Origin: Escherichia coli | GTDB taxonomy: Bacteria; Pseudomonadota; Gammaproteobacteria; Enterobacterales; Enterobacteriaceae | DNA: 64,000 bases | Assembly (NCBI RefSeq): GCF_044324875.1 | Contig: NZ_CP172185.1 | Reading direction: 5' to 3' (one strand) | Shown here: positions 62,754 through 64,000 of the stretch, piece by piece | Position numbering within the stretch: the first letter of the stretch is position 1 | How the letters are laid out: each line of letters opens with the position of its first letter | The notes under the pieces: model-generated | The model's database searches: none | Told to the model about the DNA's origin: nothing | Seen by the model: only the letters and a program-made list of their open reading frames with translations | Position numbers and translations under genes: made by a program

Positions 62754-62982
62754 TCCTCTGATTTACAAAACACGCTAATTCGTCTTCCATAAACCATGAC
62801 GATTAAGATTTATACATAATGCACTGCATTGAGGAATTCCCTGAATGTGACGCAAATCACTTCAAAGAGTGAGCAACAGTCAGTATCATCATGTGAGTTA
62901 AACCCTCGCCGCCTGACGGTGAGGGTTTTCTTTTGGGTATGTTTATCTGCGACACTCGCAGTACCGACGACATGGAGTAAAA

Positions 62983-63393
62983 ATGTCCAGACCAACTATC
63001 ATCATTAACGACCTGGATGCCGAACGCATCGATATTCTGCTGGAGCAACCCGCCTATGCTGGTTTGCCAATCGCCGACGCGTTAAACGCAGAGTTGGATC
63101 GCGCCCAAATGTGTTCGCCAGAAGAGATGCCACACGACGTGGTGACAATGAACAGCCGGGTTAAATTCCGCAATCTTAGCGATGGCGAAGTGCGTGTGCG
63201 CACGCTGGTGTATCCGGCAAAAATGACCGACAGCAATACTCAGCTTTCCGTTATGGCTCCGGTAGGTGCCGCACTGCTGGGGCTGCGCGTTGGCGATTCC
63301 ATTCACTGGGAACTTCCGGGCGGCGTTGCAACCCACCTTGAAGTGCTGGAACTCGAATACCAGCCAGAAGCTGCTGGCGACTACCTGCTTTAA
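62983..63393 (+). CDS. rnk: Regulator of nucleoside diphosphate kinase (GreA/B-like)
   Basis: 136 aa [42 protein letters not shown]... Confidence 0.95.
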
Positions 63394-63426
63394 TCCCATC
63401 TGCACAAGCGATAACTCGCTTTGCCC

Positions 63427-63451
63427 AGAGGATGCACTCGCATCCTCTTTC
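63427..63451 (+). terminator. Hairpin after rnk (putative terminator)
   Basis: AGAGGATGC-actcg-CATCCTCT followed by TT. Confidence 0.45.
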
Positions 63452-63535
63452 CGCTCAAATATCAACCAGATTTATCATTTTGCTCTTAAGCGCAGCATTC
63501 TAATCTGAACTGGTTATTCATCTGCGGAACCTCAT

Positions 63536-63625
63536 ATGAGCGAAGCTCTCGGTATCACTGCATTTTATATATTCATAGCCGCAATTATTGTTGCTGCAGT
63601 GCTATACCTTGAACAACGCTGGTAG
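63536..63625 (+). CDS. Candidate small hydrophobic protein (29 aa, single predicted TM helix)
   Basis: ATG...TAG ORF MSEALGITAFYIFIAAIIVAAVLYLEQRW in otherwise non-coding rnk-uspG spacer; weak RBS; speculative. Confidence 0.25.
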   Translation: MSEALGITAFYIFIAAIIVAAVLYLEQRW

Positions 63626-63748
63626 CGCCTGGTTTTATTTATTTTCCAGCTCAATAGCAAATTCAGATCAAATCAGCCTCGCAAATCATAGATTCATAAC
63701 CAATAATGTGCTGTTATGTATACATGCAAAAACAAGGAGAGAATGCTT

Positions 63749-64000
63749 ATGTACAAAACAATCATCATGCCAGTGGATGTTTTCGAAATGGAATTGAGCG
63801 ACAAAGCGGTTCGCCACGCTGAATTCCTCGCCCAGGATGACGGAGTTATTCATCTACTTCACGTACTACCGGGGTCAGCCAGCCTGAGCCTGCACCGTTT
63901 TGCCGCTGATGTACGTCGTTTTGAAGAGCATCTGCAACATGAAGCAGAAGAACGTTTGCAAACGATGGTCAGCCACTTCACCATCGATCCTTCCCGCATT
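63749..64000 (+). CDS. uspG: Universal stress protein G, N-terminal 84 codons (continues beyond window end)
   Basis: ATG at 63749 after AAGGAGAG RBS; [42 protein letters not shown]...; frame open to window end. Confidence 0.9.

Follow-up and report, generated by a model that had tools for sequence, protein, structure and literature searches.

What lies between rnk and uspG in this strain of Escherichia coli, and is the 29-codon open reading frame (ORF) in that interval a genuine gene or a remnant left behind by the deletion of ybdR? The window, i.e., the whole stretch of 64,000 nucleotides analysed here, ends on its 3' side in the E. coli citT-rna-rnk-uspG region. The rnk gene for the nucleoside diphosphate kinase regulator (62983-63393, plus strand), found in both the ORF list and the RefSeq annotation, forms the left flank of a 355-bp spacer (63394-63748). 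The 5' part of uspG, encoding universal stress protein G, follows on the same strand with its ATG at 63749 and continues past the end of the window (63749-64000). An earlier reading of the letters alone (the sequence-only reading) had given the spacer, the ORF at 63536-63625, and its 29-codon translation exactly, and it had raised both possibilities after naming a ybdR gene of roughly 1.2 kb at this place in K-12. Our best overall explanation, to which we assign a probability of about 0.85, is that the locus is dimorphic in E. coli, that the window carries the short allele, and that the ORF is the gene yldA, whose product may function like the small protein YoaI. According to this explanation, the spacer consists of the rnk terminator hairpins, yldA, and the upstream region of uspG, and ybdR is not part of the haplotype.

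The 29-codon ORF is the annotated gene yldA

The ORF (63536-63625, plus strand) runs from an ATG to a TAG stop codon and codes for the 29-residue peptide MSEALGITAFYIFIAAIIVAAVLYLEQRW, a predicted single-pass small membrane protein. Because an in-frame stop codon is located upstream at 63506-63508, the ATG at 63536 is the first possible start. We used window positions 62983-64000 as a megablast query against 5,426 complete E. coli genomes and found 100%-identical as well as near-identical strains over this region. In the 100%-identical and related strains, RefSeq names the identical protein "small membrane protein YldA" (WP_001287361.1), and CFT073 and IAI39 encode the same protein. The 29-codon ORF is, then, the already annotated gene yldA. 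Both this gene and the presence or absence of ybdR are already in the public annotation, which makes them known and ordinary.

Against the YldA equivalog model NF041476 of NCBIfam, the peptide obtains 59 bits (E = 3.2e-16, residues 1-29 of 29 aligned), above the cut-off of 45, and the K-12 allele obtains 57.9 bits. With the Pfam model PF23689 (YldA-like), the window allele reaches 22.9 bits (E = 9e-5), below the gathering cut-off of 27, versus 73.6 bits for K-12 YldA. PF23689 evidently favours K-12-type sequences, and the missed cut-off reflects the model more than the gene. We therefore claim YldA membership on the NCBIfam score, synteny, RefSeq naming, length, and invariant residues, and not on Pfam. 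Annotation based on the Pfam model, which misses the window allele, can drop yldA in about one-third of E. coli genomes.

As in K-12, CFT073, IAI39, and 34-35 loci of other species, yldA is the first gene past the rnk terminator and lies on the rnk strand. It has the 29 codons, the ATG start, and the residues E3, A21, V22, L25, and E26, which are invariant in a 34-sequence alignment of YldA. Residues 5-23 form the best 19-residue hydropathy window, with a mean Kyte-Doolittle value of 2.67, which predicts a membrane-spanning stretch; polar residues are found only at the two ends of the peptide.

The K-12 orthologue

In K-12 MG1655, yldA (b4734, YP_009518757.1) resides at the same place after rnk and encodes MAEAFYILIGFLIMAAIIVMAVLYLENHS. 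The two proteins have in common the length of 29 residues, the position directly past the rnk terminator on the rnk strand, the core AAIIV.AVLYLE, and a passing score with NF041476. They differ at nearly half of their residues: 15 of 28 residues aligned by BLASTP are identical (54%), the C-terminus reads QRW in K-12 and NHS in the window, and the DNA is unalignable. The neighbourhood is also different. K-12 yldA is convergent with ybdR at a distance of 3 nt, whereas yldA of the window is followed by 123 bp (63626-63748, plus strand) containing the uspG upstream region and then by the co-directional uspG.

VanOrsdel et al. (2018, PMC6001520) attached an SPA tag to K-12 YldA on the chromosome and detected it on immunoblots, as one of 36 small proteins, in rich-medium cultures. 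K-12 yldA has also been listed among the genes induced by fluoride stress (PMC10100675), and PMC12288877 lists it together with ybdR as a convergent "excludon" whose transcripts overlap. The text of the Ribo-RET preprint does not mention yldA. It is for the K-12 orthologue that production of YldA in cells has been demonstrated.

Tail-to-tail arrangements occur at two loci. The K-12 yoaI gene (L084:8079-8183) abuts yeaK with a gap of 0 nt, and K-12 yldA (L003:5331-5420) lies 3 nt from ybdR, so that each faces a larger convergent gene; this may be coincidence or may reflect shared antisense control.

Conservation of yldA among Enterobacteriaceae

Short ORFs of similar size are common nearby, with dozens in the same 2.5 kb of the ORF list, and a 29-codon ORF in 355 bp is therefore uninformative alone. 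What raises it above chance is its conservation. With Rnk as the query against one genome per species, we obtained 80 loci and looked for YldA-like ORFs in the DNA that follows rnk. Such an ORF was present in 34 of the 80 species loci, distributed over several enterobacterial genera. Together with the window and K-12, these loci make up 36 sequences, all distinct in nucleotides and all with 29 codons and an ATG start. The mean pairwise differences at codon positions 1, 2, and 3 are 7.8, 5.9, and 14.1, which means roughly double the variation at third positions.

The same pattern is found among closer relatives. Compared with E. albertii, yldA of the window shows seven differences, all of them synonymous at third positions, leaving the protein unchanged, while the 276-bp segment around the gene has diverged by 14%. 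Across three other Escherichia lineages, we counted ten variable sites; every one is a third position, and together they alter a single amino acid. The concentration of substitutions at third positions and the constant length and start mark yldA as a translated gene under purifying selection. The nearest relatives of the window-type gene are found in Escherichia (92-97% DNA identity), followed by Citrobacter (75%). A profile search of 1.84 billion representative proteins, using as query a YldA alignment headed by a 33-residue, upstream-extended ORF, returned only 43 matches, indicating that the YldA family is small and narrow.

Two haplotypes of the rnk-uspG interval in E. coli

As the sequence-only reading had stated, K-12 MG1655 carries ybdR (b0608, 1,239 bp) between uspG and rnk. 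That reading had also suggested aligning the spacer to K-12 and other E. coli, and such a comparison reveals a dimorphic locus. By blastn of a 100%-identical strain against K-12, the haplotype-specific segment of the window spans 276 bp (63455-63730). This short haplotype, which has no ybdR, is carried by 1,816 of the 5,426 complete E. coli genomes, including CFT073, IAI39, and ST131. The K-12-like long haplotype, with a segment of 1,611 bp, is carried by 3,600 and includes K-12 and O157:H7 Sakai. We take CFT073 to belong to phylogroup B2, IAI39 to F, K-12 to A, and Sakai to E. Our literature search found no paper linking ybdR to phylogroups.

The 1,611-bp segment of K-12 carries the other yldA allele, ybdR, and another uspG upstream region, and it is unalignable to the 276-bp segment. 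The left breakpoint is at 63454, immediately past the rnk terminator hairpin, and on the right homology resumes 18 bp before the uspG ATG. Beyond it, uspG itself is a mosaic relative to K-12, with identities of 88%, 98%, 98%, 84%, and 82% per 100 bp. With unalignable segments, YldA alleles of only 54% identity, and different sequences upstream of uspG, the two haplotypes differ by whole-segment replacement rather than by a simple indel.

We found no remnant of ybdR in the spacer, where tblastn of YbdR gave a best E-value of 1.9 and permissive blastn of the 1,611-bp segment one of 0.61, and neither search detected one in the rest of the window. In genomes of the short haplotype, the query from K-12 matches over its first 61 bp only, so that, at the sensitivity of megablast, ybdR is not located elsewhere in these genomes either. 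We also considered the ORF of the window as a fragment of ybdR and ruled this out, as K-12 has both yldA and ybdR. The absence of ybdR, which the sequence-only reading had correctly reported, is a common natural variant found in about one-third of E. coli genomes and not a local deletion scar. That reading had allowed that rnk and uspG might be adjacent in K-12 as well and the ORF not conserved, neither of which is the case. From the letters alone, it had recognised a real small gene and a real difference in gene content.

Two further observations concern variation at and near this locus. A metagenome scaffold (L085:2703-2906; ENA ERZ28624427) contains a 67-residue ORF in which codons 1-19 of window-type yldA are fused to K-12-type sequence with the full K-12-type yldA, and ybdR comes after it. 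This arrangement, present on a single contig, could have arisen by natural recombination of the two haplotypes or as a chimera of the metagenome assembly. The intergenic region of ahpC and ahpF, which lies outside the window, measures 128 bp in a strain matching 62983-64000 (L001:5883-6010) and 244 bp in K-12 (L003:1510-1753), an indel of about 115 bp that is possibly a repeat element.

The interval as a hotspot of two cassettes

Four states of the interval are found across Enterobacteriaceae. Neither gene is present in most Kosakonia species, Kluyvera, and the C. freundii complex, with spacers of 146-205 bp. The Escherichia short form, C. koseri, Lelliottia, and Phytobacter have yldA only (about 350-510 bp), K-12, C. 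sedlakii, and several Enterobacter have both yldA and ybdR (about 1,650-1,790 bp), and Salmonella, E. hormaechei, and Silvania have ybdR only (about 1,510-1,630 bp). In Kosakonia, yldA forms a clean indel of about 210 bp between the conserved terminator hairpin and the conserved uspG upstream region. The four states together with the Kosakonia indel indicate that yldA and ybdR behave independently. The interval is a hotspot in Enterobacteriaceae at which two cassettes, one of about 210 bp with yldA and one of about 1.3-1.5 kb with ybdR, are gained and lost separately.

Regulatory signals in the spacer

Two hairpins follow rnk at 63402-63451 on the plus strand (63402-63424 and 63427-63448), with a predicted RNA folding energy of -24.2 kcal/mol (z = -5.5). 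The second, AGAGGAUGC-ACUC-GCAUCCUCU followed by U's, is likely the rnk terminator, and homology to K-12 stops just past it, at 63454. Its stem is found in 65 of the 80 enterobacterial loci, with occasional compensatory changes from C-G to U-A (four loci). A consensus scan for promoters and terminators over 63300-63800 called nothing; it did not call the rnk terminator hairpin because the U run is short. Searching the spacer against Rfam identified no RNA family, and a match to snoZ223 (E = 0.011), far below the gathering score, was dismissed as chance. Just upstream of rnk, Rfam places the "Enterobacteria rnk leader" (RF01771) at 62829-62937 (plus strand), with 124.9 bits versus a gathering score of 50. 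The rnk leader is a known cis-regulatory leader.

At the level of primary sequence, the hairpin GAGGATGC...GCATCCTC (63427-63451) is kept nearly letter for letter in 65 of the 80 species (L004-L083), with a loop that is free to vary and a right arm, GCATCCTCTTT, that hardly changes. A plain terminator would not require its sequence to be conserved to this extent.

Upstream of yldA, the sole Shine-Dalgarno-like element that we could read from the sequence is a weak GGAA (63526-63529, plus strand) 6 nt before the ATG, in agreement with the weak ribosome-binding site reported earlier. Other genera and K-12 have GGGA or GGAA at the corresponding position of the alignment; its role in ribosome binding is putative.

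A TGnTGTTAT motif (63709-63717, plus strand) is located 31 nt before the uspG ATG and is conserved in a 17-sequence alignment of yldA-only loci, where columns T316, G317, T319, A323, and T324 are invariant. We regard it as a candidate extended -10 element of the uspG promoter. The Shine-Dalgarno sequence of uspG, AAGGAG, is at 63734-63739 (plus strand). Kosakonia species without yldA retain this region upstream of uspG, and it is fully different between the two E. coli haplotypes, up to the last 18 bp before the ATG. The regulation of uspG may therefore differ between the short and the K-12 haplotype. In K-12, the divergent region between ybdR and uspG (L003:3869-4088, minus strand) contains a TATAAT-like box.

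YldA is a distant paralogue of YoaI

When compared with the YoaI equivalog model of NCBIfam (NF041475), YldA scores 30 bits (E = 4e-7), below the cut-off of 45. The hhalign comparison of YldA with YoaI gave a probability of 91% (E = 1.1e-6) and placed E26 of YldA on E31 of YoaI. In the reverse direction, YoaI scores 18.9 bits against the YldA profile, versus 9.2 bits for the best of 2,000 shuffled YoaI sequences; the best other ORF of the window reaches 6.9 bits. The two proteins share about 34% identity over one hydrophobic helix. Another protein, encoded at the yoaI locus between homologues of yeaL and yeaK, combines a YoaI-like N-terminus (MND...) with a YldA-like C-terminus (VLYLERRW) and bridges the two families.

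The position between yeaK and yeaL that is typical of yoaI is not that of yldA, which lies between rnk and uspG. The conserved C-terminal glutamate is present, as E26 aligned to YoaI E31 is invariant among the 34 aligned sequences. Because YldA falls below the NF041475 cut-off, we consider it to be a distant paralogue of YoaI and not its orthologue. Our literature search found no paper mentioning YldA together with YoaI.

YoaI needs E31 both to bind the sensor kinase EnvZ and to activate it (PMC11429745). By analogy, YldA would form a transmembrane helix in the inner membrane with a cytoplasmic C-terminus, an orientation assumed from that predicted for YoaI and from the basic residues at the YldA C-terminus. 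Its partner would be a larger protein, most plausibly a sensor kinase, whose membrane part YldA would contact via the invariant juxtamembrane Glu26, and this binding would tune the activity of the partner. We consider such a YoaI-like action via E26 to be the most likely mechanism for YldA, even though we would more readily doubt it than rely on it.

A further reading, less likely than not, is that YldA and YoaI constitute one small enterobacterial family of membrane "connectors" in which YldA modulates a sensor kinase or another membrane protein via Glu26, as YoaI does EnvZ via Glu31, and that two ancient YldA alleles, 54% identical, are maintained in E. coli and tied to the presence or absence of ybdR and to the uspG promoter region. 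If true, the B2 and F strains examined would wire the rnk-uspG stress locus differently from K-12-like strains. The paralogy with YoaI and the shared functional glutamate offer a testable handle on YldA function. In the whole analysis, only the relationship to YoaI and the deep divergence of the two alleles might be worth an experiment.

Alternative explanations

It could be argued that ORF 63536-63625 is open merely by chance, within DNA that does not code, and that its RefSeq annotation is dubious, given its very short length, a weak Shine-Dalgarno sequence, no promoter consensus found, many ORFs of similar size nearby, and a score below the PF23689 cut-off. The conservation data contradict this idea: 36 distinct sequences keep the same length and start codon and show substitutions patterned as in coding DNA, the Escherichia genes vary at third positions only, the protein is unchanged across a segment 14% diverged from E. 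albertii, and the K-12 orthologue has been detected as a protein (PMC6001520). We therefore regard a chance frame as scarcely credible. If the ORF is a gene, the size and hydrophobicity of its product would also suit a type I toxin-like, membrane-damaging peptide under antisense control, and the convergent yldA and ybdR of K-12 are 3 nt apart and listed as an "excludon" with overlapping transcripts (PMC12288877). Yet the short haplotype has no convergent gene, neither an antisense promoter consensus (63300-63800) nor an Rfam RNA family was found in the spacer, and yldA is a single-copy gene at a fixed core position. The detection of tagged K-12 YldA in rich-medium cultures (PMC6001520) and the homology to YoaI, a regulator and not a toxin, also speak against toxicity, so that a toxin appears quite improbable.

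More weight, though still little, should be given to a short spacer derived by deletion: Escherichia would originally have had ybdR, like Salmonella, and the line leading to this strain would have lost it. The gene is found at the same place in Salmonella, C. sedlakii, and many Enterobacter, Leclercia, and Silvania species. K-12 ybdR has about 77-81% DNA identity to theirs (about 80% for Salmonella and Citrobacter) and is thus as diverged as rnk, uspG, and ahpF, as vertical descent predicts; the identity typical of flanking core genes would fit ancestral presence followed by loss. A plain deletion, however, would keep the flanks alignable; what is found instead is replacement of the entire segment to within 18 bp of the uspG ATG, two yldA alleles of only 54% identity, and no ybdR remnant in the spacer. 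The reference strains of phylogroups B2 and F are also short, and the same colinear short form occurs in E. albertii and in two more lineages of the genus, the latter two being about 4-5% diverged from the window and all three showing segment divergence in line with that of the flanks. K-12-type yldA, on the other hand, has no relative closer than 69% DNA identity among the 80 species, in which we identified no donor of the K-12 haplotype (closest yldA 69%, closest ybdR about 80%). Since these three non-coli Escherichia lineages are colinear and short and K-12-type yldA has no close relative, the short form is most likely the vertically inherited state of Escherichia, as judged from these lineages and from reference strains of phylogroups A, B2, E, and F. 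The K-12-type haplotype would then be an old alternative segment that was swapped in by recombination. The suggestion that the ORF is a deletion remnant thus finds no support, as K-12 has yldA in addition to ybdR, no trace of ybdR was detected in the spacer, and E. albertii and other Escherichia share the form without it. The other suggestion, a small membrane protein gene, is borne out by the RefSeq entry, the 59 bits with NF041476, the 29 codons kept across genera, and SPA tagging in K-12.

Comparison with known small membrane proteins

The pairs MgrB-PhoQ, SafA-PhoQ, and MzrA-EnvZ, which are general knowledge and are discussed in PMC11429745, illustrate how small membrane proteins modulate kinases by contact; we draw from them a functional analogy to YldA only and claim no sequence relationship. 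Besides K-12 YldA, the closest known system is YoaI (b1788), a 34-residue protein that binds and activates EnvZ (PMC11429745). It differs from YldA in its locus at yeaK-yeaL and in five additional residues at the N-terminus, and E. coli YoaI has no match to PF23689. Both proteins have one hydrophobic helix, an acidic residue close to the N-terminus (E3 in YldA, E8 in YoaI), and a glutamate at the C-terminal membrane boundary (E26 and E31, respectively).
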